From Nitrospinales bacterium (GTDB lineage: Bacteria; Nitrospinota_A; UBA7883; JACRGQ01), in the NCBI GenBank assembly GCA_023248495.1, contig JAHFEK010000007.1, positions 4,770-68,769 of the forward strand: a stretch of 64,000 nucleotides of DNA, in the 5' to 3' direction. A program made the translations under genes and the position numbers. Under the pieces are notes generated by a model that ran no database searches, was not told the origin of the DNA, and was given only the letters and a program-made list of their open reading frames with translations. Of the stretch, positions 2,471-35,448 are shown one piece after another. How positions within the stretch are numbered: position 1 is the stretch's first letter; every line of letters starts with the position of its first letter.

Positions 2471-3828
2471 TTGCCCACGCAGAATTCGTCAAAGATTGCG
2501 GAAAGCACCTCTTCGGTATACGACTCGCCGGTGAAGCGCTTTATCTCCTCCAGCGCGTCCCACACGCTGGCGGCGGCCAGCTCGCGCCCCAACTCAACTT
2601 CAGCGGCGGCGCGGCGCAGGTCCTCGGCAATGCGGCAAAATATTTCGCGGTGGCGAAGCCGCGTCACCACCGGTTCTTCGCTGTTGAGGTTTTCCGCGTC
2701 ATGCGCGAAGGCCGCTATTTTTTTCAGGAGCGGATCAAGTCCGCGCATCTCTTTTACGGAGATATGCACCGGTGAAATCGCCGCGTCGGGCCAGGCGATC
2801 CGTTGCGGCATATCGGCTTTGTTTATCACCGCCAGATGGAGCCGCGCCTTTTTTAGCGTTTCAAGAACGGTTGTATCGCTTTTCTCCCATGGACGCGAGC
2901 CATCGAAGAGACCGATAACCGCGTCGGCCGTTTCGGCGGCCTTCAACGCGCGGCGAATTCCTTCCGCCTCCACCTCATCCGGCGATGGATTCAGCCCCGC
3001 CGTGTCTATCAGCTCCACTTTCAGTCCGGACAGCTCCCCTTCGGCGCGGATGAGGTCGCGCGTGGTGCCGGGGATGCCGGAAACGATTGCCCGTTCCTCC
3101 TCAAGCAGCGCGTTGAGCAACGACGATTTACCGGCGTTCGGTTTGCCGATAATGGCGAGCGAAAGGCCGTGCTTCAAGAATTTGCCGCCGTCGTAGCTCT
3201 TTATCAAAACATCCAGCCGCCGCGCAGCCTCGGTCAGCGTCCGGCGCAGTTCGCCATCGGCGGCAGTGACGAATTCCTCATCGGGAAAATCGATGGAGGC
3301 TTCCAGATGCGAAAGCGTCCACACCAGCTTTTGGCGCACCGCCTCGATCCGCCGGGAAAGTCCTCCCTCCATCAGGCCAAAGGCGGCGCGCGCCGCCCCC
3401 TCGCTGCGGGCCTTGATAAGGTCTATCACCCCTTCAGCTTGGCTGAGGTCGATGCGGCCGCTCAAAAACGCACGTTTGGTGAATTCGCCCGGCTCGGCCA
3501 TTCGCGCGCCGGCGTTTAGCAGCGCATTTACCGCACGGCGCAGCACGGCGGGCGATCCGTGGCAACTTATCTCCACCATGTCCTGCCGGGTGTAGCTGCG
3601 CGGCGATTGCATGTAGACCACGCAGACTTCGTCCACCGGTCCCGCGGAGCCGCACAACGTGCCAAAGTAAAGCCGGTGTGATTCAAGCGGATCGCCGGGC
3701 TTTCCGCCTTTGCGGCAGAAAAGCTGAGCGGCGATACGGTGTGCATCAAAACCCGAAACGCGAATAACGCCAAGTCCCCCCTCGCCAACGGGGGTGGCGA
3801 TAGCGGCGATGGTATCGTCAAGAATCAT
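2467..3828 (-). CDS. mnmE: tRNA modification GTPase MnmE (TrmE)
   Basis: DTIAAIATP, GEFTKRAF, GKPNAGKSSL, GTTRD, DTAG, NKAD, terminal FCVGK. Confidence 0.98.
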
Positions 3829-3900
3829 ACGCTTAATTTAGATGCGCGGCGGAACTTTGGCAAGGGAAAGGGGGATTACATGGACAATAGCGGGAAATAA

Positions 3901-3934
3901 AAAAAAGGGGGCGGTTGCCCGCCCCCTTTTAAAA
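3901..3934 (-). terminator. Intrinsic terminator of the Ala/Pro-rich lipoprotein gene
   Basis: GGGGGCGG-4 nt loop-CCGCCCCC stem followed by a T run on the minus strand. Confidence 0.8.
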
Positions 3935-3940
3935 GACGGA

Positions 3941-4201
3941 TTACTTGTGGGCCGGGGCTGCTGCGGGAGCCGGAGCTGCCGCGGGGGCCGGGGCTGCTGC
4001 GGGGGCTGCTTCCGGAGCCGGGGTTGCCGCCGGGGTTGCTTCCGGGGCCGGTGCTGCCGGAGCTGCTTCCGGGGCCGGTGCTGCCACCGGGGCCGGAGCT
4101 GCCGGGGCTTCTTCCTTCTTTTCGCAAGCCGGAAGAATCGCGAGGGATCCCGCGAACAATACTGCTACCGCCAAGAGGCCAAACTTTTTAAACATATTCA
4201 T
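3941..4201 (-). CDS. Small Ala/Pro/Glu-rich repeat lipoprotein
   Basis: Signal peptide with ILPA-C lipobox, then APAAP/APEAA repeats; AAGGA RBS, promoter and terminator present. Confidence 0.8.
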   Translation of the reverse strand: MNMFKKFGLLAVAVLFAGSLAILPACEKKEEAPAAPAPVAAPAPEAAPAAPAPEATPAATPAPEAAPAAAPAPAAAPAPAAAPAHK

Positions 4202-4292
4202 CTCTATCCTTTAAAAATTGTTGTATCCGGTCGCGTTTGCCGACACACCGCGCGTCGACGGACCAGTAATCCACATGTCCAATAAGCGCGTA

Positions 4293-4321
4293 AATCTATC
4301 ACATTTTGTTGATGGCGGCAA
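4293..4321 (-). promoter_or_regulatory. Putative sigma70 promoter of the lipoprotein gene
   Basis: TTGCCG-N17-TAGATT on the minus strand. Confidence 0.45.
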
Positions 4322-4652
4322 CAACTTTGGCGGTAATTGTTGGCAATAACATTAAGGTGGTTTGGGGAGTGGCGATGAGTGTCTGATTATTTCGGGGCTT
4401 TTGGGGGAAACGGGCATCTTTTCCTAAACGTTATCAACGACCCTCCGGTTATTTTTTCACGCCCTTTAATAGGGGGCACCTGTCGCGGATCAAACAATCT
4501 TTTGAGTGTACGTTTCCCGTCACACTTTTAATAATGCCGCTGGTTTTCACAACCATATGCCGAAAAAAAACAGGCAAGCCAACAGCCACACGGCATCCAC
4601 GCCAATCATATCGCCGTAAAATTTCGCGGCGAAATAAATTTTTTGTTCCCGC

Positions 4653-4681
4653 TTGATTTCTACGATTGCATCGTCTATAAA
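4653..4681 (+). promoter_or_regulatory. Putative sigma70 promoter of the sfrBA-nuo operon
   Basis: TTGATT-N17-TATAAA, with an ACGAT-N3-ATCGT palindrome in the spacer. Confidence 0.6.
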
Positions 4682-4875
4682 AGGCGGGCGTGCTTGGAGG
4701 CAAGCCGCGTTGCAGGGGGACAGTTTCTTTAGACTGTAAGATGCAGGAGAGGACAGCGCGTCATGTGGGGAAGCATCATGTCGAGCCTTATCGGTTCTTG
4801 CGCGTTTATCCGCGCTGAAGCGGAAACTCCGCCTTCACGCCATGAAGCCCGGCTTTCCGCTATTGGGGCGGCTCA

Positions 4876-6882
4876 ATGAAGGTACTTTTCAGCTCTTGGC
4901 AGGATGTTATCGTCGATAACCGCGGCAAGCCGCGCGACGCATGGGACGATGCCAAGGTAAAACTTCCCGAAACATACGATGGCGCGCGGAAAATGACCGC
5001 ATTCATGGGCTGGGGCGGCGTTGTCATCCTGGACGAGCCGTTCGATATTGTGGAAATGGCCGCCAATTACGTCAAAGCGCTCCAGAAGAGCTCCTGCGCC
5101 AAGTGTTTCCCCTGCCGGGTCGGCACGAAAGTAATGGAAGATATTTTTGCCCGCATCGTTGCTGGAAAGGGAACGGCGGGAGATCTCGCCCAGCTTGAAG
5201 GGCTATGCGAAACCATTTCACGCAATTCCAAGTGCGGCATCGGCCAACTGGGACCAGGCCCCATCGTAGATTCCTTCAAATACTTTAAGAAGGAATATCA
5301 AGAGTACGTTCTTGGCAAGAAGAGGGGGCCGGGCTATTTCTATCCGAATAAGACTACCGCTCCCTGCACGGCGGCCTGCCCCACCGGCATGGATATTCCT
5401 CTTTATATAGAGCAAATTAAGGAGGGGGATTTCGCCGGATCGCTGGCCACCATCCGCACGGCCAGCCCGATGGCGTGCTCGCTGGGCCGCGCCTGCTTCC
5501 ACCCTTGCGAAAATAACTGCCGCCGTGAAAATGTGGAGCGGTCGCTGGCGATCTGCAAGCTTAAGCGTTTCGCCTGGGATTACGAAGATCTGCACGCGGT
5601 CGACAAGCCGGGCAATCCGAACCGGCACACCCGGCCTGAAAAGGCGGCCGTGATAGGCGCGGGTCCTTCGGGCCTTTCCGCCGCGTATTATCTGCTGTTG
5701 CAGGGCTTTCATGTCACCATATTTGAAAAGTTGCCGACGCCCGGCGGCGCGGCGTGGACCGGCATCCCGCATTACCGCATCCCGAAGGATGTCATGATGC
5801 GCGAGGTTAAATATATTGAAGACCTCGGCGGCGAGATCAAATACAACGTCCATTTCGGCAAGGATGAAACCTTTGCCTCGCTCCGCGCCAAGGGTTTTAA
5901 GGCTTTTTTTGTCGCCACCGGCGGCGATCTTTCCAAGGCGATGGGCGTGGAGGGGGAGGACAAGAACTATCAGGGGGTTTACGGCGGTATCGCCGCCCTC
6001 AAGGAAATAGTCGATTTCACCATCAAGGATGCCGTCCCGAATGCGTCCGCTAAAATTCCCACGCTGGCCAAGCCGAAAAAGGTGTTGGTGGTTGGCGGCG
6101 GCAACACGGCGATGGACTGCGTGCGGAGCTGGATCCGCCTCGGTTGCAAGGATGTGAATATCGTTTATCGCCGCACCAAAAAGGAACTGCCGGCCGATCC
6201 GCACGAAGTGCACGAGTCTGAAGACGAAGGGGTAAACTACTGTTTTATGCTGGCCCCCACCAAGCTGGTGGCGGACGGCAGCGGCAAGGTTGTCGGCCTC
6301 GAATGCCAGAAGATGGAAATGGGTCCTCCGGACGAATCGGGCCGCCGCAAGCCGGTGCCGGTGCCGGGTTCCGAACATCTGGTCGAGGGGGATATGGTCA
6401 TCTCCGCGATTGGGCAGGACTGCGACATTTTCTTCCTCAAGGAAGTGCCGGACGTGAAAACCACAAAGTGGAAGACGATCATCACCAATGAAGAGACTTT
6501 TCAGACCGCCGTGCCGGACATCTTTGCCGGCGGAGATGTGGTATCGGGACCGCTGAATTTGGTGACGGCCGTCGGCCATGCACGCCGTGCGGCCCAGAGC
6601 ATGGGGCAGTTTCTGCGGGGTGAAACCGTTGGCATTAGCGACGAACAGCGGATGGAGAAGGTTATCGCCACTATTGGCGTGTACGACAAAAACGAAAAAG
6701 TGCCGATGCCGGGCGGTTGGCCGCGGCAGGAAATGCCGATCTGCGACCGGCAGGATAAAATCGGTTCCTTTAAAGAAGTGGAATTGGGTTACTCGCTGGA
6801 GGCGGCGGTTGATGAGGCCGGCCGCTGCATGCGTTGTTATGTGGTAGGTATGGCATGCGTGCCGGAGGGAGCGTCCAAATGA
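4876..6882 (+). CDS. sfrB: SfrB-like NAD(P)H oxidoreductase beta subunit (NuoF-type 4Fe-4S domain + GltD-like FAD/FeS domain)
   Basis: N-terminus MKVLFSSW..IVDNR and AFMGWGG resemble Geobacter SfrB as I recall it; SCAKCFPCRVG..KC cluster; CTAACP/CFHPCENNCRR; GAGPSG and GGGNTAMD dinucleotide motifs; terminal RCMRC. Confidence 0.85.
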   Translation: MKVLFSSWQDVIVDNRGKPRDAWDDAKVKLPETYDGARKMTAFMGWGGVVILDEPFDIVEMAANYVKALQKSSCAKCFPCRVGTKVMEDIFARIVAGKGTAGDLAQLEGLCETISRNSKCGIGQLGPGPIVDSFKYFKKEYQEYVLGKKRGPGYFYPNKTTAPCTAACPTGMDIPLYIEQIKEGDFAGSLATIRTASPMACSLGRACFHPCENNCRRENVERSLAICKLKRFAWDYEDLHAVDKPGNPNRHTRPEKAAVIGAGPSGLSAAYYLLLQGFHVTIFEKLPTPGGAAWTGIPHYRIPKDVMMREVKYIEDLGGEIKYNVHFGKDETFASLRAKGFKAFFVATGGDLSKAMGVEGEDKNYQGVYGGIAALKEIVDFTIKDAVPNASAKIPTLAKPKKVLVVGGGNTAMDCVRSWIRLGCKDVNIVYRRTKKELPADPHEVHESEDEGVNYCFMLAPTKLVADGSGKVVGLECQKMEMGPPDESGRRKPVPVPGSEHLVEGDMVISAIGQDCDIFFLKEVPDVKTTKWKTIITNEETFQTAVPDIFAGGDVVSGPLNLVTAVGHARRAAQSMGQFLRGETVGISDEQRMEKVIATIGVYDKNEKVPMPGGWPRQEMPICDRQDKIGSFKEVELGYSLEAAVDEAGRCMRCYVVGMACVPEGASK

Positions 6883-9455
6883 GCCACGCCGCCGCCGATA
6901 CGAAGACAACCATTACCTTGACCATCGACGGCCAGACCGTCGAGGTGAAAAACGGAACGACCATATTGCAGGCGGCGCGCCGCGTGGGCAAAAAAATACC
7001 GACGCTCTGCTATCTGGAAAAAACCCACCCCATCGGTTCCTGCCGCGTTTGTTCCGTGGAAGTGGCGGGAGTCGACGGCCCGGTGATGAGCTGCAACACG
7101 CCGGCGTCCGATGGCATGGCCATTACCACCGACAGCGAACAGCTGAGGGAATTCCGCCGGAACATGATTCAGTTTATCCTGGTGAACCACCCGCTCGATT
7201 GCCCGGTGTGCGAGCGTTCCGGCGAATGCACATTGCAGAATCTCACATGGCAGATGGGCATCAAAAAGCACGATTGGAGCACCGCGGCCCACGAGAAAAA
7301 ACCGGTGGTCGACTGGGGCCTGATCCGGTACGACCAGAACCTTTGCGTGATGTGCGAACGCTGCGTTCATGTTTGCAACGAGGTGCAGGGAATCAACGCC
7401 TTCCGCGTGGACGGCAATGGCTATGCCGCGAAAATCAATACGCAGGACGGCAAGCCGCTTGATTGCGATTTCTGCGGCCAATGCATTTCAGTGTGCCCGG
7501 TGGGGGCGCTTTCCAGCGGCATGTATTTTTCGGGCCGCTCGTGGGAGATGAAGCGCACCGCCACTATTTGCCCGCATTGCGCCGTCGGTTGCGCGTTTGA
7601 AGTGAACACGAAGAAAGGCAAGATCGTCCGTATCACCAGCAATACCGCGCTGGGAACCAACAAGGGCAACCTCTGCGCCCGGGGCCGTTTTGGGTACGAA
7701 TTCGTGCATCAGGGCGAACGTCTTACCGCGCCGATGATTCGCCGGGGTCACGGCTTTGAGACCACCGATTGGGATACGGCGATTGCCTATGTCGCCGAGA
7801 AGCTGAACGGATACCGCGCGGCGGGGAAAAACGCCTTCGCCGGCATCGGCAGCGAACGCGCAACCAACGAAGACAACTATCTGTTCCAGAAGTTTTTCCG
7901 CAGCGCTCTTGGCTCCGGCAATATCGACAACATGGCCAACATGGCCGGTCATGATACCGCGGGCGGCCTCTTCGAGGCGTTTGGCGATTTCCCGATGACC
8001 ATATCCTTTGACGAATTGAAACAGGGCAATCTTTTCGTGTTTATCGGGCTTGATGGCAGCAATGAAAATCCGGTAGTGAGCAACCACATCCGCGAAGCAA
8101 TCCACGGGCATGGCGCCGAAGTGGCGCTGGCCTACAGCAAAGAGGCGTTCTTTCTGCCGTCACCCCGCATGAAGCTGACCTACGGCTATGCCGAACTGCA
8201 CGAATTCGTCGTGACGCTGGCGGGGGAACTGGCGGCCGCCATCAAGTCCGGCGGCGGCATTCCCGGCGGGACGGTAATCGCGGGGGATTTTGAAAAGCGC
8301 CTGGAGGCCGAACTTGGCGGCGCGCGGGCCAAGCTGGATGGCGCGTTGAACGCGCAGGCCGCCCAGCTTGCGGCCCTTATCAAGAAGAAGCAAAAGCCGG
8401 TGTTTCTCATCGGGCAGGAGGCTCAGCGCCATCCGCGGGCCAGCGCCATCGTGCGGAATATCGTAAACCTCGCCAAGATCGCCGGCGGCAAGGTAATGGT
8501 GATGCGCGAATATTGCAACTCGCGGGGGGTTAACGATATGGGCGTGGCCCCGAACGTCCTTCCCGGATACGTAAAGGAGACGCGGCAGGAGTTGAGGGCA
8601 TTCGACGACCTCTGCACTCTTATCAACAATCATGAGACCAAGGCGCTAATTATCACCGACGAGGATGTGTTGCGCCGTCACGCCGATTTTGTCAAATTCC
8701 GCGAGGCGATGGACAAGGTGGAATTCGCCGTGGTGGTGGATCAATTCTACTCGCTGACCGCCATGGCGGCCGATGTGGTGTTGCCGTCGTGCACCTCTTT
8801 CGCGAAGGAAGGCACGTTTACCAATATTGAAGGACGCATCCAGAAAATCAACCCTGCCATCGAACCGGTGGGTAATAGCCGGACGGTGTGGCGGATTTTT
8901 GCCGACATCGCCAAGGCGATGGGGCACGATTTCGGCTATCGCTCCACCGCGGACGTTCAAGCGGAAATTGCCGCCAAGGTGCCGGGATACGGGGCGATTA
9001 TCGATGGCGGCATGGCCGATTACTCCGGACTCATCAACGGTTCGCCGGCGCTTACATGGGTGGAACCGGCTTCGATGAAAAAGCCGGCCCCCGGCGAGCT
9101 GGTGTTGTTGCCCGAACACAACCTCTTCGTGATGGGCATTTACACCGATTATTGCCCATCGCTCCGCCATTTGGTCGGGAAGCATTACGCCGATTTCCAT
9201 GTGGAAGGCAAGCCGTACGTCGATATCAATCCCGCCGATGCGCAGGCACTGGGCCTCAACGCCGAGGATACGGTTCTTTTCAAATCGCCGAAGCGGGAGT
9301 GGAAAGGGCGCGTCCGCATGAGCGGCGCGGTGAAGCCGGGCTCCGTGCGCATTCCCGATGAAATGGATCAGTCGCCATCCGTTATAATGACGGCGGGCGG
9401 CCGCGAGATACAATGCCACAATCTGTTGGGGCTGATGGGGAAGGAAAAATGCTAA
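6879..9455 (+). CDS. sfrA: SfrA/NuoG-like FeS subunit (2Fe-2S, 4Fe-4S, molybdopterin-fold domain without a Mo ligand)
   Basis: CY..GSCRVC..SC, HPLDCPVCERSGEC, CVMCERCVHVC, CDFCGQCISVCP, CPHCAVGC..C; start set at the ATGA overlap with sfrB (GGAGG upstream). Confidence 0.8.
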   Translation: MSHAAADTKTTITLTIDGQTVEVKNGTTILQAARRVGKKIPTLCYLEKTHPIGSCRVCSVEVAGVDGPVMSCNTPASDGMAITTDSEQLREFRRNMIQFILVNHPLDCPVCERSGECTLQNLTWQMGIKKHDWSTAAHEKKPVVDWGLIRYDQNLCVMCERCVHVCNEVQGINAFRVDGNGYAAKINTQDGKPLDCDFCGQCISVCPVGALSSGMYFSGRSWEMKRTATICPHCAVGCAFEVNTKKGKIVRITSNTALGTNKGNLCARGRFGYEFVHQGERLTAPMIRRGHGFETTDWDTAIAYVAEKLNGYRAAGKNAFAGIGSERATNEDNYLFQKFFRSALGSGNIDNMANMAGHDTAGGLFEAFGDFPMTISFDELKQGNLFVFIGLDGSNENPVVSNHIREAIHGHGAEVALAYSKEAFFLPSPRMKLTYGYAELHEFVVTLAGELAAAIKSGGGIPGGTVIAGDFEKRLEAELGGARAKLDGALNAQAAQLAALIKKKQKPVFLIGQEAQRHPRASAIVRNIVNLAKIAGGKVMVMREYCNSRGVNDMGVAPNVLPGYVKETRQELRAFDDLCTLINNHETKALIITDEDVLRRHADFVKFREAMDKVEFAVVVDQFYSLTAMAADVVLPSCTSFAKEGTFTNIEGRIQKINPAIEPVGNSRTVWRIFADIAKAMGHDFGYRSTADVQAEIAAKVPGYGAIIDGGMADYSGLINGSPALTWVEPASMKKPAPGELVLLPEHNLFVMGIYTDYCPSLRHLVGKHYADFHVEGKPYVDINPADAQALGLNAEDTVLFKSPKREWKGRVRMSGAVKPGSVRIPDEMDQSPSVIMTAGGREIQCHNLLGLMGKEKC

Positions 9456-9805
9456 ACCAGTACATTCCGATACTCGTGATGACGCTGGCGGCGTGCGGCA
9501 CGGCGGCGGGCATGATAATTCTGACCTCGATCATAGGGCCCAAGAGGGAGTTCGAAGAAAAAATGGAGCCGTTTGAGTGCGGCGTGTCGCCGATCACCGA
9601 CCCGAAAAGCCGTTTCGGCGTCCGGTTCTATCTCGTCGCAATGCTCTTCATCGTGTTCGATATAGAAGCCGTTTTTCTCTTTCCGTGGGCGGCGGTGTTC
9701 CGGGAACTGGGGATGTTCGGCTTTGTTGAAATGATGGTCTTCATCCTGGTGTTGACGGTGGGGCTCGCCTATATTTGGAAGAAGGGGGCTTTGGAATGGG
9801 AGTGA
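9449..9805 (+). CDS. nuoA: NADH-quinone oxidoreductase subunit A
   Basis: PFECG, FYLVAMLFIVFDIEAVFLFPWA, WKKGALEW; start overlaps the sfrA stop. Confidence 0.96.
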   Translation: MLNQYIPILVMTLAACGTAAGMIILTSIIGPKREFEEKMEPFECGVSPITDPKSRFGVRFYLVAMLFIVFDIEAVFLFPWAAVFRELGMFGFVEMMVFILVLTVGLAYIWKKGALEWE

Positions 9806-10332
9806 CAAGGGAAGAACGCAATATCGAGGCCGCGCTGGGCGACAGCGTGATTCTCACCCAGGTTGATAAAGTCATCGGCTGGGGAAGGAAGTACTCGTTC
9901 TTCCTCTATCCGTTCATCACCGCCTGCTGCGGCATGGAATTCATGTCGGTGGCCGGTCCCCGCTACGATCTCGACCGGTTCGGCGCGGCGTTGCCGCGCT
10001 TCTCGCCACGCCAGGCGGATTTGTTGTTTGTGGTCGGCACCATCAGCCACAAACAGGCCCCGATCCTCAACAAAGTGTATAACCAGATGGCGGAGCCGAA
10101 GTGGGTTTTCGCCTTCGGCGCGTGCGTCTGCTCCGGCGGCATGTACAACAATTACTCCACGGTGCAGGGCATCGACACCATTTTGCCGGTGGATGTGTAC
10201 GTGCCGGGTTGCCCGCCCCGCCCCGAAATGGTGTTTGACGGACTTCTCAAACTGCAGGAGCTGGTCGCCAACGAGCGCTCGTCCAAGTGGCCGCGCGGCA
10301 AATCCCAATATGAGCCGAGGGTGAAACGCTGA
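9796..10332 (+). CDS. nuoB: NADH-quinone oxidoreductase subunit B
   Basis: TACCGMEFM, FSPRQADL, GACVCSGG, VPGCPPRPE. Confidence 0.97.
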   Translation: MGVTREERNIEAALGDSVILTQVDKVIGWGRKYSFFLYPFITACCGMEFMSVAGPRYDLDRFGAALPRFSPRQADLLFVVGTISHKQAPILNKVYNQMAEPKWVFAFGACVCSGGMYNNYSTVQGIDTILPVDVYVPGCPPRPEMVFDGLLKLQELVANERSSKWPRGKSQYEPRVKR

Positions 10333-10817
10333 TGGGCCGCTTGATAGATTTGTGCAAGCGGAAACTGGGCGATACCGTGCTGTCCGCGCACGAGCAGCAT
10401 GGCGATGAAACCGTCGTGATCCGCAAAGACGCGTTGCTCACCGTGCTGCGTTGGCTGCGCGACGACGATGCCATGAAATTCGATTTCATGATGGATCTGA
10501 CCGCCGTGGATTACCTCGGCACGAGGGCGCGCAGCGAACGGTTTGAAGTGGTGTACCATCTATTTTCGCTGAAGAACAACCACCGTCTCCGCGTCAAGAC
10601 GCTGGTGGCCGACGACGATCCGGTCACCGAATCCGTCGTTACCGTTTGGGTGGCGGCCAACTGGTTCGAGCGCGAGGTGTGGGACATGTACGGCATAATC
10701 TTCAAAGGCCATCCGAACATGAAGCGGATTCTCCTGTACGAGGAATTCGAAGGCCATCCGTTACGCAAGGACTACAACATCCGTAAACGTCAGCCGCTCA
10801 TCGGGCCGGAGAACTGA
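10332..10817 (+). CDS. nuoC: NADH-quinone oxidoreductase subunit C
   Basis: DLTAVDY, FEVVYHL, ANWFEREVWDMYGI, GHPLRKDY. Confidence 0.96.
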   Translation: MGRLIDLCKRKLGDTVLSAHEQHGDETVVIRKDALLTVLRWLRDDDAMKFDFMMDLTAVDYLGTRARSERFEVVYHLFSLKNNHRLRVKTLVADDDPVTESVVTVWVAANWFEREVWDMYGIIFKGHPNMKRILLYEEFEGHPLRKDYNIRKRQPLIGPEN

Positions 10818-10821
10818 AGCG

Positions 10822-12021
10822 ATGGAAAATAGACACCAGCTGGACTTAAATACGGAACTGATGGTTCTGAACATGGGGCCGTCGCATCCGGCGACCCACG
10901 GCACCGTCCGGTTTTTCATTAAGCTTGACGGCGAAAAAATCATCCATATGGAAACGGAAATCGGCTACCTCCACCGCGCATTCGAAAAGCATTGCGAAGA
11001 CGGCACGTGGAGCAAAGCGTTCCCCTATACCGACCGGCTGAACTATAACAGCGCCCCCCAAAACAACGTCGCCTATGCGTTGGCGGTGGAAAAGCTGATG
11101 GGTATGGCGGACAAGGTTCCCGCCCGCACCGTTTACATCCGAACCATCATGTGCGAACTGTCGCGGATGGCCGATCACTACACCAACCTTGGCGCGGCCA
11201 CCCTTGAATTGGGCGCGCTGACGGCATTTCTCTATTTCGTCGAAGCGCGCGAACTGACATGGGATCTTATCGAGTCGGTTTGTGGCGCGCGCCTCACTTC
11301 GAATTATGTACGTATCGGCGGGCTTGCTTCCGACCTGCCGGAAGGTTTCGCGGGAAAGGTGAAAGAAGTTTTTGCCAAGAACCGCGTGTTTTGGGATGAA
11401 TTTGACAAGTTGCTGACGAAAAATCGCATTTTCCTCGATCGTATGCGCGACACCGGGGCGATTTCGCGCGATGACGCCATCGCCTATGCTTTCACCGGGC
11501 CTTGCCTGCGCGCGGCCGGCGTTGAATACGACGTTCGCAAAGCCTCACCCTACCTTGCTTACGGCAATGTCGATTTCGATATCCCCGTCGGCACCACCGG
11601 CGACAATTTCGACCGGTACCTCGTCCGCATGGAGGAAATCCGGCAAAGCGAGCGGATTATCGAACAGTGCCTCGCCCAGATGCCCTCGGGTCCGATCAAC
11701 ATCAACGATGCGGCGGTGCGCAACCCCAGCAAGGAAGAAGTGAAATCGAACATGGCATCGATGATATTCCACTTCAAAAACACCATCGAGGGAATACAGG
11801 TTCCCAAGGGCGAAGTCTACGTTCCCACCGAGGGATCCAACGGCGAAGTTGGTTTCTACCTCGTTTCGCAAGGCGGCGGCAAGCCGTGGAAGTGCCGTGT
11901 GCGGCCCCCCTGCTTCGCCCTTACGCAGGCGATGGGGCATATGTGCAAAGGATCGTTCTTGGCGGACATCATTCCGACTTTCGACATGATTAACCTTATC
12001 GGCGGGGAGTGTGACCGCTAA
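10822..12021 (+). CDS. nuoD: NADH-quinone oxidoreductase subunit D
   Basis: NMGPSHPATHG, IGYLHRAFEK, DRLNY, RVRPP, GECDR. Confidence 0.96.
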   Translation: MENRHQLDLNTELMVLNMGPSHPATHGTVRFFIKLDGEKIIHMETEIGYLHRAFEKHCEDGTWSKAFPYTDRLNYNSAPQNNVAYALAVEKLMGMADKVPARTVYIRTIMCELSRMADHYTNLGAATLELGALTAFLYFVEARELTWDLIESVCGARLTSNYVRIGGLASDLPEGFAGKVKEVFAKNRVFWDEFDKLLTKNRIFLDRMRDTGAISRDDAIAYAFTGPCLRAAGVEYDVRKASPYLAYGNVDFDIPVGTTGDNFDRYLVRMEEIRQSERIIEQCLAQMPSGPININDAAVRNPSKEEVKSNMASMIFHFKNTIEGIQVPKGEVYVPTEGSNGEVGFYLVSQGGGKPWKCRVRPPCFALTQAMGHMCKGSFLADIIPTFDMINLIGGECDR

Positions 12022-13133
12022 TGTTTGATTACACCTATTTGCCGGCGCCGAATCTCATCCCCTCCATCGTGGAGATGATGCTGAAGATCGTATTTATTTT
12101 CTCGATGAACATGGGGGTCTTCGCCCCGTTGCTCGGCTGGGTGGAGCGAAAGCAGTCGGCCCTCATGCAGGACCGCATCGGCGCGAACCGGGCCGAGATT
12201 TTCGGCTTCACGGTGTTCGGTCTTCTGCACACGGTTACGGACGCGATCAAGCTTCTCACGAAGGAGGATTTCATTCCGCGCGGCGCCGACAGGCCGTTGC
12301 ACTACCTGGCGCCGTTTATCGCGGTGGTGCCGTCGCTTGTCGCATTTGCGGTCATACCCTTTGGCGGCAAGTACATGCTCTGGGGGCATGAAGTGAATCT
12401 GGTTATCGCCGACCTCAATGTTGGCATGTTGTATGTTTTCGCGGTGGCTTCGCTGGCTACCTATGGCGCGGTGATTGCCGGCTGGGCTTCGAATAACAGT
12501 TGGTCAATGCTGGGCAGTATGCGCGTGGGCGCGCAGATGCTTTCGTATGAAGTGGCGATGGGCCTTACCCTCGTCGGCATTTTTATGGTGTACGGCAGCT
12601 TGCAGTTGACCACCATCGGCATGGCCCAGGAAAACTTCTTCCACTGGGGCATTTTCCTCCAGCCGCTCGGCTTCATACTGTTTATCGCCTGCGCTTTGGC
12701 GGAAAACAAGCGCACGCCGTTTGATATGCCGGAAGCGGAGTCTGAACTCATCGCCGGGTATTTCACCGAATACTCCGGGCTTAAGTTCGCCATGTTTTGG
12801 ATGGCGGAATTCCTGGAAATGGTGACTATCGCCGCGGTGCTGGTGGCGCTTTTCTTCGGCGGCTGGCACATCCCGTTCATCACTCACCAAGGGCTTATCG
12901 CCGCGATGGGTTACCTGTTCGGCGCCAACTTCGGGGCGATAGCGGCCATGATTATTCATGTCGCCGTGTTTTGGCTGAAGGTCGTCGTATGGATCATGAT
13001 TCTTATGCTCATCCGCTGGTCGTTGCCGCGTTTCCGGTTCGACCAAGTGATGAAGCTTGGCTGGAAAATCGTCCTGCCGCTGGCGCTGGCGAATATTTTT
13101 ATAACGGGCCTCGTTCTTTTGGCGGTGCGGTAA
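12021..13133 (+). CDS. nuoH: NADH-quinone oxidoreductase subunit H
   Basis: ERK..ALMQDRIG, DAIKLLTKE, SYEV, RTPFDMPEAESEL, LPRFRFDQ. Confidence 0.97.
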   Translation: MFDYTYLPAPNLIPSIVEMMLKIVFIFSMNMGVFAPLLGWVERKQSALMQDRIGANRAEIFGFTVFGLLHTVTDAIKLLTKEDFIPRGADRPLHYLAPFIAVVPSLVAFAVIPFGGKYMLWGHEVNLVIADLNVGMLYVFAVASLATYGAVIAGWASNNSWSMLGSMRVGAQMLSYEVAMGLTLVGIFMVYGSLQLTTIGMAQENFFHWGIFLQPLGFILFIACALAENKRTPFDMPEAESELIAGYFTEYSGLKFAMFWMAEFLEMVTIAAVLVALFFGGWHIPFITHQGLIAAMGYLFGANFGAIAAMIIHVAVFWLKVVVWIMILMLIRWSLPRFRFDQVMKLGWKIVLPLALANIFITGLVLLAVR

Positions 13134-13708
13134 TGGTGGCGAATTATAAAAAGGTTAACCGGGGCGTGACGCTCACCTTTTGGGAGCGGATATATGTGAT
13201 GGAAGTGATGCGCGGCATCATCATTACCGGGCGCCACTTTATCCGGAACTGGGTTTCCACCATCCGGTCGTATGTCAGCGGCAATCCCGCCGATCGCGGC
13301 ATCCCGACCATCTATTACCCGGAGGAAAAGCCGCTGCTGCCGGAAGCGTACCGTGGCCGCCCCATGCTGGTGCGCGCCGTCGATGGCAAGGAAAAGTGCG
13401 TGGCATGCGGGCTGTGCGAAGTGGCCTGCCCGCCCAAGTGCATCACTATTGTGGGCGCTATGCGGCCGGATGGCACGCGGTATCCCGAAACGTATACGCT
13501 TGACGGGGCGGTCTGCATTTTCTGCGGGCTGTGCGAAGAGGCCTGTCCGGAAGAAGCGATTGTGATGAGCCCCAACTATGAAGGGCTGGCGGAATATGAC
13601 CGCGGCCTGATGCTCTACGACAAAGAAGCGCTGCTCGTGCCCGAAGAGAAACTCCAAGGACGGCTGGATTACATTCGGCGGAGGATGTTCAACAAATGCA
13701 ACTACTGA
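13133..13708 (+). CDS. nuoI: NADH-quinone oxidoreductase subunit I
   Basis: YPEEK, CVACGLCEVACP and CIFCGLCEEACP; start at the TAATG overlap. Confidence 0.95.
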   Translation: MVANYKKVNRGVTLTFWERIYVMEVMRGIIITGRHFIRNWVSTIRSYVSGNPADRGIPTIYYPEEKPLLPEAYRGRPMLVRAVDGKEKCVACGLCEVACPPKCITIVGAMRPDGTRYPETYTLDGAVCIFCGLCEEACPEEAIVMSPNYEGLAEYDRGLMLYDKEALLVPEEKLQGRLDYIRRRMFNKCNY

Positions 13709-30201: not shown

Positions 30202-31201
30202 TTCCCGCCCTTCGGCCGATCGCGCCCGTTGCGGCGTTTCCCTCGCCACGCGCTCCTACAACGGCCGCGAACTGCTGGAGGAATGCCTGCCGTCGCTGCT
30301 GGAGGCCGCCGCCTTTCATGGCCATCCGGACAACGAGGTCTGCGTGGCGGACGATGGTTCCGGCGACGGCACGGCGGAAATGATGCGCGCGAAATTTCCA
30401 CAAGTGCGGTTTTTGCGGCTTGAGCAGCGCGGCGGCAGCCCCGCGGCCAGCAACGCCGTCATCGCGCAATGCAAAAACGAGATTATTATTTTCATGGATA
30501 ACGATGTAAAGGTGGAGCGGGATTTTATCGCGCCCGCCCTGCCCCATTTCGACGATCCTTCGGTTTTTGCCGTGACCATGCGCGCCCGCCGTTTCGATAA
30601 AACCACGTTTCAGAGCGGCGGCCAGGTGGGGCGTTTTTCACGCGGGTTCATCCGCGCCTGGGAGAATTATGACGTGACGGAACAGCAGCGCCCGCTGGGG
30701 GATCTTTATTCCCTGTACGGCATCACCGCGCATGTTGCATTCCGCAAGGCGATGTTCACGCAAATGGGGGGGTTCGATCCGCTCTATTCCCCCTATATTT
30801 GGGAGGATACCGATCTGGGCTACCGCGCGTGGAAGCGGGGCTGGAAAACGGTTTACGAGCCGCGCTGCCTCGTCTATCACAAGGTGCACGGCACCGCCGC
30901 GAAGCTTCCCCCAAGTTCCCGGATGCTGTACGTCAGCGAGCGCAACCGGCTGATTTTCCACTGGAAGCTGCTTGCCGACGGAGACCTGCTTTTCTGGCAT
31001 TTCTTTTTCCTTTTTTGGCGCACGCTTCTGGCGGTTTTTACCTTTAAAAAAAAATTCCTGCTGGCGCTGGCGGAGGCGTTACAATCGGTGCCAGCCATTC
31101 GCGCCTACCGGAATGCGGACAAGCAACACTGGGTCTTGCGTGACCGCGACATCCTGGGGAAGCCATTAGAAACCTTGAATAAACTTGGGGGAAACAAATG
31201 A
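30194..31201 (+). CDS. Glycosyltransferase family 2
   Basis: [41 protein letters not shown]. Confidence 0.92.
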
Positions 31202-31845
31202 AGATATTTATCGATACGGCGGACATCAACGAAATCCGCGAGGCAAACCGCATCGGGATTTTGGATGGCGTCACCACCAACCCGTCGCTTATCGCCAAAA
31301 CGGGCAAGGATTTCAACAGCGTGGCGAAGGCGATTCTCGCCGAAGTCAAGGGGCCGGTGAGCCTGGAGGTGATCTCGCTCGACACGGACGGCATGTTGAA
31401 AGAGGCCCGTGAACTGGCCAAGCTGGGCGAGAACGTGGTGGTGAAGCTGCCGATGACCGTTGACGGCCTGAAGGCATGCAAAGCGCTCACGGACGAGGGA
31501 ATCAAAACGAACGTCACGCTCATCTTTTCCTCCAGCCAGGCGTTGCTGGCCGCGAAGGCCGGCGCCACCTACGTCTCGCCGTTTGTCGGCCGTTTGGACG
31601 ATATATCCGAGGATGGCATGGTGCTGGTGGAGCAGATCGTCCAGATATATCAAAACTACGGCTATCAGTCGGAGGTGATTGTCGCCTCCATCCGCAGCCC
31701 AATGCACCTCGTGAAGTCTTGCCTGATAGGAGCGGATGTTTCGACCATCCCCTTTGGCGTCATTCAACAGCTTTCCAAGCACCCGCTCACGGATGTCGGT
31801 ATCGAGCGGTTTCTGAAAGACTGGGAAAAGGTTCCGAAGAAATAG
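31198..31845 (+). CDS. tal: Transaldolase (short FSA/TalC type)
   Basis: [47 protein letters not shown]. Confidence 0.96.
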
Positions 31846-31863
31846 CCCGGCGAACTATTATGA

Positions 31864-32008
31864 AAATTTGGGTGGTGTCTCAGTTTGAAATTAATGTTTG
31901 AATGGGGTAAGGGATTGCTTCGTTAACACTCGCAATGACAGTTGTTTGTCATTGCGAGGCCATCGAAGATGGCTGCGGCAATCTCAAACTGAGACACCAC
32001 CAAAATTT
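31864..32008. repeat. Nested palindromic REP/MITE-like element
   Basis: Perfect 18-bp inverted repeat (31871-31888 / 31984-32001) enclosing GATTGC/GCAATC, a 12-bp CTCGCAATGACA/TGTCATTGCGAG stem and a GCCATC/GATGGC stem. Confidence 0.75.
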
Positions 32009-32111
32009 GCATTTGCTGGAACAATGAAAGGCAAATTTGGTATGCTATCAGTCAGGTTTGATAACATTGGAATGGGGCTTTACGGTATAAGTCAGAAAAT
32101 GAGGCCAAGTT

Positions 32112-33161
32112 GTGCTTAAGTCGCTTGATATTAAAAACCTGACTGTTTTCCCTGAAGTTCCGCTTCAATTCGGGAAGCACCTAAATGTGTTTATCGGAGA
32201 AAATGGCTCCGGCAAGTCACACCTGCTAAAAGTTGCGTATACCGTTCTGGCTGTAAGCGCGGAGGAGGGACGCAAACCAAATGGTTCCCTACCGACAAAA
32301 TCCCTGCTTCAAACCCGGCTGGCGGAAAAACTGGTGGCAGTACTTCGCCCGGAGACACTTGGAAGGCTTGTGAGACGTAAGCAGGGTCGTGGACGATGCG
32401 AAATCAAGCTCCACTTTGAAGATCAGAAACTGAACATTGATTTTGGCTTTACCACAAACAGCAAGTCAGAAGTTGATATCAAAAGGTTGCCCAAAGTTTG
32501 GGAAGAAAAACCTCCCGTATTTCTACCGACAAGGGAACTATTAACAATTTACCCAAATTTTGTTTCCGTTTACGATAATCATTATCTTGAGTTTGAGGAA
32601 ACTTGGCGGGACACTTGCGTTTTGCTCGGAGCCTTGGCCCTTCGCGGCCCAACGGCAAACCGCATTAAAGAACTTCTTGCCCCACTTGAACATGCCATGG
32701 GTGGCTCAATTATCTTAGATAAAAATGGCCGTTTTTATTTAAGTATCCCCGGTCAAGGGAACATGGAAATACCTCTTGTCGCCGAAGGGTTGCGAAAGCT
32801 GGCCATGTTAATACGCTTGATCGCAACGGGTTCACTGCTTGATAAAGGTTATCTTTTTTGGGATGAACCCGAAACCAATCTTAATCCGAAACTAATAAAG
32901 CAAATGGCATCCACGATTCTTCAACTCTGCCAAAGCGGCATTCAAGTCTTTGTTGCAACGCACAGCCTGTTTCTGTTACGCGAAATTGACATTTTGCTGC
33001 AAGGCGATGACTTTAAGGATACGGATGCCCGCTTCTTTGGCCTTCAGTACAAAGAAGAAGGTTGCAAAATAGAGCAAGGTAAAAGCGTTGATAATATCGG
33101 TGCGATTGCTTCTCTTGAAGCTGAATTAAGTCAATCGGATCGTTATTTAGGTGCTGAATAG
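32112..33161 (+). CDS. ABC/AAA_15-type ATPase (OLD/Septu/PARIS-like ATPase superfamily)
   Basis: Walker A GENGSGKS, signature-like VAEGLRKLA, Walker [13 protein letters not shown]-loop ATHS; GTG start; low GC. Confidence 0.9.
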
Positions 33162-33167
33162 TCAGTA

Positions 33168-33677
33168 ATGCCCACTATTTGTGAAGGGAATTTATCATTT
33201 CATTTTCCCGACACTTGGGAAGCCACAAAATATGATGATTGGAGCTTCCATCGAAATCAATTCCAATCCGTATGTGGGGGTACGAAAGCAATTGACATAC
33301 TCGCCATATCACCAAACCTCAGTGCATGGTTTATAGAAGTCAAAGATTTCAGACGGCATTCCCGCACTAAAGTAATCGATTTAGCGGATGAAGTGGCAAT
33401 GAAAGTCCGCGATAGCCTAGCCGGAATTTTTTCCGCTAAAGTAAATGCCCCTGACATTGGCGAGAGAAACTTGGCAACCAAAGCGGTAAACGCCACCAAA
33501 ATTCGCATTGTCTTGCATCTTGAACAGCCCGCAAAACATAGCAAATTATTTCCACGGGCGATAGACCCGGCGATAATAAAACAAAAGTTAAAACAGATTT
33601 TGAAAGCTGTTGACCCCCACCCACTAGTTCTGGAAAAATTGTCTTCTCCGGGAAGGGTTGACTGGGCGGTTCGATAA
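33168..33677 (+). CDS. Putative PD-(D/E)XK nuclease
   Basis: KAIDIL..WFIEVKDFR motif; 6 nt after the ATPase; low GC. Confidence 0.65.
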   Translation: MPTICEGNLSFHFPDTWEATKYDDWSFHRNQFQSVCGGTKAIDILAISPNLSAWFIEVKDFRRHSRTKVIDLADEVAMKVRDSLAGIFSAKVNAPDIGERNLATKAVNATKIRIVLHLEQPAKHSKLFPRAIDPAIIKQKLKQILKAVDPHPLVLEKLSSPGRVDWAVR

Positions 33678-33706
33678 TTAGTCGTCCAATGTGCAACCCC
33701 CTGTGG

Positions 33707-34291
33707 TTACTCCCAGAGGAAGAAGGCCGATTTCCGTTGCGGGGGGGAAATCCACCCTTTTGCCATGAATCCGTAATACGTTCCGGCGGAAACCGCCGCG
33801 CCGATACAGGCTCCCGCCAGCACATCAAACGGAAAGTGGGAACCAAGATAAACGCGGGAGATCCCCACCAGCGCCGCCCACGAAAACCACCATGCGCGGT
33901 GGCGGCGGAACAGCAGCGCCATGAGCGCCGCCACGCTGAAAGCGGTCTGCGTGTGGCCTGAAGGGAACGTGCCGTGATAGAGATGCTCGTACGGGGCGTG
34001 CACCGCCGCGTTGGGCGGCGGCGTTTTTCCGGCAAAGTAGGTGAGGGGGCGGTCCGCGCGCACATTCTGTTTTACCGCATGCACCACCCCGCCCGCCAGC
34101 AGCAGGGCGGCGGCCAGCAACGCCACGTTGCGCCGTTCCAGCCCGCCGTACCACCAGAACGCGCCTAGGGCCATGATGGCCGCAGGCACGGAATAGGCCG
34201 TGAAAGAAAAGAGGTACATGAGTGGGTCGAGTATCGGCGCGTGTGTTCCATTGATAAGCCAGAAAAACCGTTCATTAAGCGCCGTGAACAT
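33707..34291 (-). CDS. PAP2 family membrane phosphatase
   Basis: K...RADRP, FPSGHT, SRVYLGSHFPFDV. Confidence 0.93.
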   Translation of the reverse strand: MFTALNERFFWLINGTHAPILDPLMYLFSFTAYSVPAAIMALGAFWWYGGLERRNVALLAAALLLAGGVVHAVKQNVRADRPLTYFAGKTPPPNAAVHAPYEHLYHGTFPSGHTQTAFSVAALMALLFRRHRAWWFSWAALVGISRVYLGSHFPFDVLAGACIGAAVSAGTYYGFMAKGWISPPQRKSAFFLWE

Positions 34292-35448
34292 CAGCCGCCG
34301 TTTTTCCTGAACAGGCGCGCCGCGCGGGCGCGGGTTTCATCAAGCCAAATCTGCAATGCCAATGGCCCCGATTCGCGTCCGGCGCGGAAAAGAAACGCCG
34401 CGGCCAGCAGGCCCATCACGAGATTCGGCATCCACATCGCGAATAACGGCGTCAGCTTTCCCTCGCGCCCCAGGCTTTCTCCAAACATCAACAGCACGTA
34501 GTTAATGACGATAAGCATAATGCCAAGGCCGATGCCCCCCCTGCCGCCGCCGCGGTGTACTTGCAGGCCGAGGGGGGCGGCCAGCAGCGCCAAGACAACG
34601 CAGGCGAATGGCAGCGCGAGCCGCTTGTGTTGTTCCACTTCCAAAGTGTACCGTTGCAGCGGATTGCGCACGCGCGCGGCTTCGCCGCGAAGCTCGCCAA
34701 ATGATAATTCCCGCTCGCCCTTTATGAACGCTTGCCGCCGGCCACCGGTGTCCATCACCATTTCGTACTCGCCGAACGTCATCGTGCGCCACGCTTTCGC
34801 GTCGCCGCTGTACATGGTGCCGCCGCCAAGGCGGAAAATGATGCTGTCGGATGGCGTTCGTTCCAGCACGCCTTCACGGGCCGTGATAAGCCGGGGGTGG
34901 TTTTTGTCGGATCCGTCGAAAATGAAGACTCCCTTTAACACATCGGTTCCCCGCTCCTTTCCGTTGACGTAGATCACGGTGCCGGGAAACCGGTCGAAAA
35001 ATGTCCGTTCACCCAGCGCGGCGGTGAATCGGCGGCTGACATAATCGGCGATTTGGGAGTTAAAAAGGTAGTTGCCCCGGTGCAGCACATCAAGCGAAAG
35101 CCACAGCGACAACAGACCGGCCGCCCCGGCAAGCAGCATTACCGGGAAAAGGATTCGGTAAAAGCTGACGCCGCATGCGCGCATGGCGATGATTTCGCTG
35201 TCACCCGACATTCGGGAAAAGGTGATAAGCGTCGCCAGCAGCACCGCCAACGGGATGGTAATCACCAGGAAAGCGGGAGAAGTGTAGAGGATCAGCCGTA
35301 TCAGTTCACCGCCGCTGATGGCGTTTCCCACCGTCATATTGGCGATAAAGTTAATTTTTTCCAGAACCAAAATCGCCATCAGGACGAAAAGGGAGAGCCC
35401 GAACAGTTTGAAGATTTCACCGAATATATACCGGTCAAGCAACTTCAT
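34291..35448 (-). CDS. lptF: LPS export permease LptF/LptG family
   Basis: LLDRYIF, IPLAVLLATL..SRMSGDSEIIAMRACG, WMPN. Confidence 0.88.
   Translation of the reverse strand: MKLLDRYIFGEIFKLFGLSLFVLMAILVLEKINFIANMTVGNAISGGELIRLILYTSPAFLVITIPLAVLLATLITFSRMSGDSEIIAMRACGVSFYRILFPVMLLAGAAGLLSLWLSLDVLHRGNYLFNSQIADYVSRRFTAALGERTFFDRFPGTVIYVNGKERGTDVLKGVFIFDGSDKNHPRLITAREGVLERTPSDSIIFRLGGGTMYSGDAKAWRTMTFGEYEMVMDTGGRRQAFIKGERELSFGELRGEAARVRNPLQRYTLEVEQHKRLALPFACVVLALLAAPLGLQVHRGGGRGGIGLGIMLIVINYVLLMFGESLGREGKLTPLFAMWMPNLVMGLLAAAFLFRAGRESGPLALQIWLDETRARAARLFRKNGG

Follow-up and report, generated by a model that had tools for sequence, protein, structure and literature searches.

The tal/PAP2 locus and its inserted cassette

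The window, that is the 64,000-nucleotide stretch of DNA analysed here, contains two open reading frames on the same strand with a gap of only 6 nt, the first coding for an ABC-type ATPase and the second for a small nuclease-like protein (Table 1). The tal gene (PF00923) lies upstream of the pair and a convergent PAP2 gene (PF01569) downstream. Besides tal, the transaldolase gene, the upstream flank has genes for a heptosyltransferase of family GT9 and a glycosyltransferase of family GT2, and the downstream flank codes on the other strand for PAP2, an LptF/LptG permease, MarC and a TPR protein. The surroundings of the cassette are envelope and metabolism housekeeping genes, not a defence island. 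Base composition sets the pair apart, with a GC content of 44.6% against 57.5% for the whole window; along the sequence GC falls to 0.42-0.47 over 31800-33600 compared with about 0.58 on both sides, and GC3 is 0.42 in the ATPase gene, 0.41 in the small gene and 0.78 in tal. An AT-rich two-gene cassette between tal and PAP2 had been reported in a preliminary description made from the letters alone; its ORF coordinates are exact and the drop in GC is borne out by measurement.

Table 1. Positions in the window of the genes, motifs and other features of the locus. L104 is a Logan contig from a different sequencing run; G001, G002 and G003 are genomes of the same genus.
Feature	Position	Strand	Description	Evidence
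Inserted DNA	31846..33704	.	DNA inserted relative to same-genus genomes	blastn and junction alignment vs G001, G002, G003; low GC
Flanking duplication, left copy	31863-31870		8 nt, AAAATTTG	
MITE-like repeat	31871..32002	.	palindromic dispersed repeat, 132 nt	genome BLAST, inverted repeats I1 and I6, copy alignment
Leader	32003..32111	+	upstream leader of the cassette, presumed promoter region	~86% conserved with L104; sequence inference
Flanking duplication, right copy	32003-32010		8 nt, AAAATTTG	
Candidate extended -10	32038-32046		TGgTATGCT	
Ribosome-binding site	32101-32104		GAGG	
HEC-02 ATPase gene	32112..33161	+	ABC-type (OLD/PtuA-like, AAA_21/AAA_15) ATPase, 349 aa, GTG start	PADLOC, Pfam
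Walker A	32196-32219		G29-ENGSGK35-S	
ATPase residues 141-180	32532-32651		candidate interface	
Signature	32781-32789		A224-E225-G226	
Walker B	32853-32867		D251-E252	
H-loop His	32961-32963		H284	
HEC-02 small-protein gene	33168..33677	+	NERD-like PD-(D/E)XK partner, 169 aa	PADLOC, conserved motif
Nuclease motif residues	33294-33296, 33336-33338, 33342-33344		D43, E57, K59	
Spacer to PAP2 stop	33678-33706		29 nt	

Comparison with three genomes of the same genus revealed that the tal stop is followed there by only 28-58 nt with a GC-rich hairpin and then by the PAP2 stop, whereas the two stops are about 1.86 kb apart in the window. Therefore, the cassette is a true insertion into the spacer of the convergent tal and PAP2 genes, and the insertion proposed in the preliminary description is confirmed by the empty sites of the three congeners. 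The homology between window and congeners ends at the tal stop codon (31845) and is found again from 33704/33705 onwards, immediately ahead of the PAP2 stop. Only two of 61 relatives have the small protein, which is missing from all three congeners. The same gene order was found in an independent ENA assembly (86.4-kb contig), and a Logan contig assembled from another run matches 31972-33925, right junction included, at 100% identity; the locus is thus not an assembly artefact. No terminal repeats or conserved cassette ends were detected in the window, an Rfam scan of the cassette region (31000-34500) gave no match, and the nucleotide similarity to other carriers is restricted to the coding part, 32107-33645.

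The Logan contig L104 shows 86% identity to the window over 32003-33778, and aligns at its two ends with the tal stop region and with the 3' end of PAP2; a related organism therefore has the cassette at the same site. Between the window and this sister-lineage copy the ATPase gene yields a dN/dS of 0.11 at a dS of 0.41 and the small gene a dN/dS of 0.21 at a dS of 0.48, so purifying selection has acted on both cassette genes ever since they were inserted.

The palindromic repeat between tal and the leader carries 18-nt terminal inverted repeats (GGTGGTGTCTCAGTTTGA) and an inner 12-bp hairpin. A BLAST search of its own 2.57-Mb genome returned 33 matches of 74-98% identity, about 30 of which are other copies, and no Rfam family matched the 132 nt. 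The repeat is flanked by a duplication of 8 nt, AAAATTTG, which L104 holds only once as an unduplicated target. Since L104 has the cassette and this single target and lacks the repeat, the MITE-like repeat arrived secondarily, after the cassette, between tal and the cassette. The locus has a clean natural history, with an exact empty site, a sister-lineage copy and a later MITE-like repeat that can be dated between them.

The ribosome-binding site of the ATPase gene stands 7 nt before the GTG start, and a sequence in the leader resembles a possible extended -10 element. A scan for consensus promoters and terminators found no terminator or recognisable sigma-70 promoter and performed no better than on shuffled sequence. 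At the other end, the stop of the small gene is separated by the short spacer of Table 1 from the convergent PAP2 stop, and the ancestral hairpin of the congeners, presumably a bidirectional terminator, has been lost in the window. Because of this loss, transcripts of the cassette may read antisense into PAP2.

The ATPase and its small partner

The ATPase has a Walker A motif (G29-x-N-G-x-G34-K35-S), a Walker B motif and an H-loop histidine, as well as the signature A224-E225-G226. Alignment of 25 homologs revealed that G29, G34, K35, A224-E225-G226, D251, E252 and H284 are invariant. The full Walker A/B and H-loop motifs and the atypical AEG signature read from the sequence earlier are thus all present, and AEG is a trait of the family because it is invariant across the homologs. 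The protein matches Pfam AAA_21 and AAA_15. The score against ABC_tran (PF00005) is 16.6 bits compared with a cut-off of 25 and covers the P-loop alone; SMC_N and the RecF N-terminal domain match weakly, and the scores for RecF, RecN and Rad50 are far under their curated cut-offs.

An AF2 model of the ATPase has a pLDDT of 72. Among solved structures, Foldseek ranked Septu PtuA first (8eea, 8sux and 8ee4; E ~1e-10, TM ~0.46), followed by Rad50 heads, retron Eco8 effectors and Thermus OLD; SMC heads match as well. Residues 141-180 form the most conserved stretch of the family, with many invariant residues, and are also the least confident part of the model (pLDDT 32-42). The segment is a candidate site of contact with the nuclease partner or the trigger.

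The small protein had been credited with a D..IEVK nuclease motif, and this reading holds: D43, E57 and K59, together with an H117-L-E119 motif, are invariant in 35 homologs, E57-V-K59 forming the second half of the motif. The core expected of a PD-(D/E)XK nuclease is alpha-beta-beta-beta-alpha-beta, with the aspartate starting strand 2 and (D/E)xK in strand 3. The AF2 model (pLDDT 84) contains a helix at 26-36, strands at 44-47 and 52-60, a helix at 72-93 and a strand at 111-119, so that D43 opens one strand and the next carries E57-x-K59, an order like that of the PD-(D/E)XK core. A Foldseek search with this model gave no hit at E<=0.001, the best E values being 0.2 in the PDB and 0.025 in BFVD. 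The non-significant top lists consist mostly of PD-(D/E)XK enzymes, among them SfsA, HincII, McrC, Cas4/ACE1, SduA, VRR-NUC and UL24. In a profile sequence search of the PDB, mS26 also came up for the small protein and was rejected, the matches being due to chance.

Comparison with the NERD domain (PF08378) stays below threshold. Both Pfam and hhalign place D43 and E57-V-K59 on the D...EVK core of NERD. However, the small protein scores 14.5 bits, below the gathering cut-off of 22.1, and every member tested is sub-threshold, with weak matches in 12 of 35 and a best E of 0.012; hhalign against nine bona fide NERD domains from relatives' genomes aligned just 28 columns around D...EVK at a probability of 8.7%. 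The small protein therewith appears NERD-like in motif and predicted topology and is not a demonstrated NERD member. As for the restriction-fold nuclease of the preliminary description, the conserved motif and the predicted topology speak for it, whereas Foldseek, Pfam and hhalign gave no significant match.

Relationship to HEC-02 and to other defence systems

Searches with the PADLOC models matched both proteins to HEC-02 over their full length. The model PDLC04146 matches the ATPase with an E value of 3.7e-167 (residues 1-348 on profile positions 1-342 of 344), and PDLC04145 matches the small protein with an E value of 7.7e-71 (residues 3-168 on positions 4-168 of 170); the ATPase also matches PDLC04213 and PDLC04214. 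The next PADLOC families, AriA, NsnB, MAD3, OLD, PtuA and GajA, follow with E values weaker by more than 140 orders of magnitude. HEC-02, for Hma-embedded candidate 02, comprises an ABC ATPase and a NERD-domain protein, the latter superposed structurally on a NERD model by its discoverers (Payne et al., bioRxiv 10.1101/2024.01.29.577857). Its presence in E. coli lowered plaquing by orders of magnitude for at least two phages; the pair was tested alone, and both genes were needed for protection (bioRxiv 10.1101/2024.01.29.577857). The tested pair is that of Dickeya dianthicola NCPPB 3534, WP_024108366.1 and WP_024108365.1 (supplementary table 2, bioRxiv 10.1101/2024.01.29.577857). In the PADLOC copy used, the label HEC-02B stands on the ATPase model (344 positions) and HEC-02A on the model of the small protein (170 positions). 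These labels of PDLC04145/04146 reverse the naming of the paper (A for the ATPase, B for the NERD protein), with which the HEC-02 models PDLC04213/04214 and 04220-04229 agree.

The window ATPase is 53% identical to the Dickeya ATPase over 348 aa (E 3e-134) and the small protein 45% identical to its Dickeya counterpart over 168 aa (E 5e-50). The two pairs have the same gene order, lengths of 349 and 169 aa here against 342 and 169 aa in Dickeya, and the Walker, signature and D...ExK residues in common. The window copy differs in coming from an uncultured Nitrospinota lineage, in lying between housekeeping genes without Hma surroundings, and in a motif that reads HLEQP in the window subfamily and HLEES in the tested Dickeya protein. 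We consider it highly probable, at roughly 85%, that the pair belongs, as a stand-alone member, to the HEC-02 family of anti-phage defence systems. The preliminary description had proposed an anti-phage pair of an ABC-ATPase and a nuclease-type protein, which is supported by the protection that the related Dickeya pair gives E. coli, and had matched it to no named system, which the full-length PADLOC matches correct. Reading the raw sequence without tools thus correctly recognised a defence system. HEC-02 as a kind has already been catalogued and laboratory-tested; what is new is an intact stand-alone copy in Nitrospinota.

The family is widely spread. In the protein collection the small protein has 1637 relatives and the ATPase more than 4335, and relatives occur in 475 species genomes among those scanned, including Planctomycetota, Binatia, Desulfobacterota, Chloroflexota, Cyanobacteria, Leptospira, Sorangium and Chlorobiota, and among the Gammaproteobacteria Pseudomonas putida, Halomonas, Acinetobacter parvus and Marinobacter. 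In all 80 of the best loci, drawn from diverse phyla, the ATPase gene lies directly upstream of the small gene on the same strand: the two genes are obligately paired. Hma genes flank 31 of these 80 loci and 35 stand alone, free of Hma genes for at least 3 kb on each side; the remaining 14, with short flanks, were left unassigned. Two of the loci, L021 and L022, have the order helicase, DUF1156 methylase, HEC-02 pair and DUF499 ATPase, the setting of the discovery of HEC-02. There the pair is surrounded by a complete Hma system (2539-13347; SNF2/DEAD helicase with NOV_C, DUF1156 methylase and DUF499 ATPase), after which come a HigB/HTH pair and an HNH gene; the methylase ORF of L021 is in two parts.

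No remnants of Hma genes were found around the window cassette, and the Hma ATPase DUF499 was not found in its own genome (88% complete). As HEC-02 was tested alone and 35 of the 80 relatives stand alone, the Hma embedding is the context of discovery, not a functional requirement. As to co-localisation of homologs with defence genes, a check suggested in the preliminary description, 31 of 80 homolog loci lie among Hma genes; the window locus itself is a housekeeping one. This copy documents HEC-02 at work, or at least selectively maintained, outside Hma systems and defence islands, and the locus supports the view that defence genes can hide among housekeeping genes.

Other systems of the same general design were also compared. 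Septu, including the retron-associated PtuAB, likewise consists of two genes for an ATPase and a small nuclease (PtuA and the HNH protein PtuB), and PtuA is the top solved structural match of the window ATPase. However, the window partner has D...ExK and no HNH match, and the ATPase scores 34 bits against the NCBIfam PtuA cut-off of 500 and an E value of 4.8e-11 with the PADLOC PtuA model. Membership in Septu was rejected on account of the partner without HNH and of the PtuA score far below its cut-off. PARIS (AriA and AriB), Gabija and OLD share the OLD-type ABC ATPase core; AriA is the second PADLOC family after HEC-02 (E 1.8e-19), and the best fold matches include structures of OLD and Eco8. 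In contrast to these systems, the window pair has no TOPRIM or DUF4435 match, either fused or adjacent, for which reason membership was rejected, and its ATPase falls far short of GajA and OLD in length. By analogy, the window pair would work like Septu and like PARIS, Gabija and OLD without belonging to them. Analogous ATPase/nuclease systems have been reviewed for BREX-related loci (NAR 2026, PMC12839542).

Proposed working and alternative readings

The 1.7-kb cassette was taken up horizontally by an ancestor of this Nitrospinota lineage and landed in the terminator spacer of tal and PAP2, where purifying selection has maintained it since. By analogy with the tested Dickeya pair and with PtuAB, PARIS and OLD-type systems, we propose a mode of action for it. 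An OLD/PtuA-like oligomer of the ATPase may bind and restrain the small NERD-like PD-(D/E)XK protein and sense a cue of infection. Upon ATP binding or hydrolysis, the ATPase would release or activate the nuclease, which might then cut nucleic acid of the phage or of the host, assumed to be DNA, so that phage multiplication stops. The literature searched contained no published mechanism of HEC-02; for the physical complex, its trigger, its substrate and what ATP does, the proposal relies on analogy.

The same interplay of a restraining ATPase and a toxic nuclease could also describe a selfish addiction module of the toxin-antitoxin type, whose loss would be costly and which would have no net anti-phage role here. 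Pfam describes AAA_21 as a 'putative AbiEii toxin, Type IV TA system', and the cassette is small, crosses phyla, stands alone in housekeeping contexts and has neither recombinase nor conserved ends. However, a close homolog protects against phage, Hma defence systems are a preferred setting for the family, and relatives occur in only 2 of 72,556 records of the plasmid collection and in none of the phage record collection, unlike typical addiction modules. An abortive, toxin-like action would in any case count as defence. We therefore regard a purely selfish module as unlikely.

That the cassette is a decaying or silent relic, its genes intact by chance, unexpressed and non-functional here, has only a slight chance of being correct. 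The MITE-like repeat just upstream, between tal and the leader, and the promoter and terminator scan would agree with it, but the repeat lies upstream of a leader of about 110 nt that is itself conserved, neither ORF is truncated and none of the invariant residues has been lost, and dN/dS values of 0.11 and 0.21 at a dS of ~0.4-0.5 indicate long-term constraint. Still less credible is a housekeeping pair for DNA repair or recombination, in which a RecF/Rad50-like ATPase would serve a nuclease. Although the ATPase model matches Rad50 and SMC heads and the sequence weakly matches SMC_N and the RecF N-terminal domain, the curated RecF, RecN and Rad50 models score far under their cut-offs, all three congeners and 59 of 61 relatives lack the pair, and its foreign composition, patchy spread across phyla and embedding in Hma systems are at odds with a housekeeping role. 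An orphan ABC-transporter ATPase serving the LptF/LptG-family permease, encoded 0.6 kb downstream on the opposite strand, is effectively refuted despite the automatic JGI label EcfA2 of several homologs, by the sub-cut-off PF00005 match limited to the P-loop, by congeners that retain PAP2 and LptF/G without the cassette, and by the partner that is conserved at all 80 loci, a small soluble protein and not a permease.

With the assignment to HEC-02 preferred, the residual interest of the locus lies in its insertion history and in how a cassette without recombinase reaches intergenic sites among housekeeping genes. The 35 stand-alone loci have no conserved ends in common, and no recombinase accounts for mobility. 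Stand-alone cassettes are AT-richer than their flanks in 31 of the 35 loci, by a median of 7.5 points. One reading, which we consider very unlikely, is that the stand-alone cassette is a minimal self-mobile defence unit, which would pass from genome to genome and enter intergenic or terminator sites with no recombinase gene, inverted ends or conserved flanks, perhaps inserting in a homing-like way by means of its own ATPase and nuclease. It draws on cassette limits that nearly coincide with the two ORFs, the unrelated housekeeping sites across phyla, the AT-richness, the rarity on plasmids and the absence from phage records. Among the other sites, the cassette lies alone inside a suf operon in L019 (8940-10507; SufBD-Rieske, pair, FeS_assembly_P) and alone between secA and a DDE transposase gene in L017 (4883-6468).
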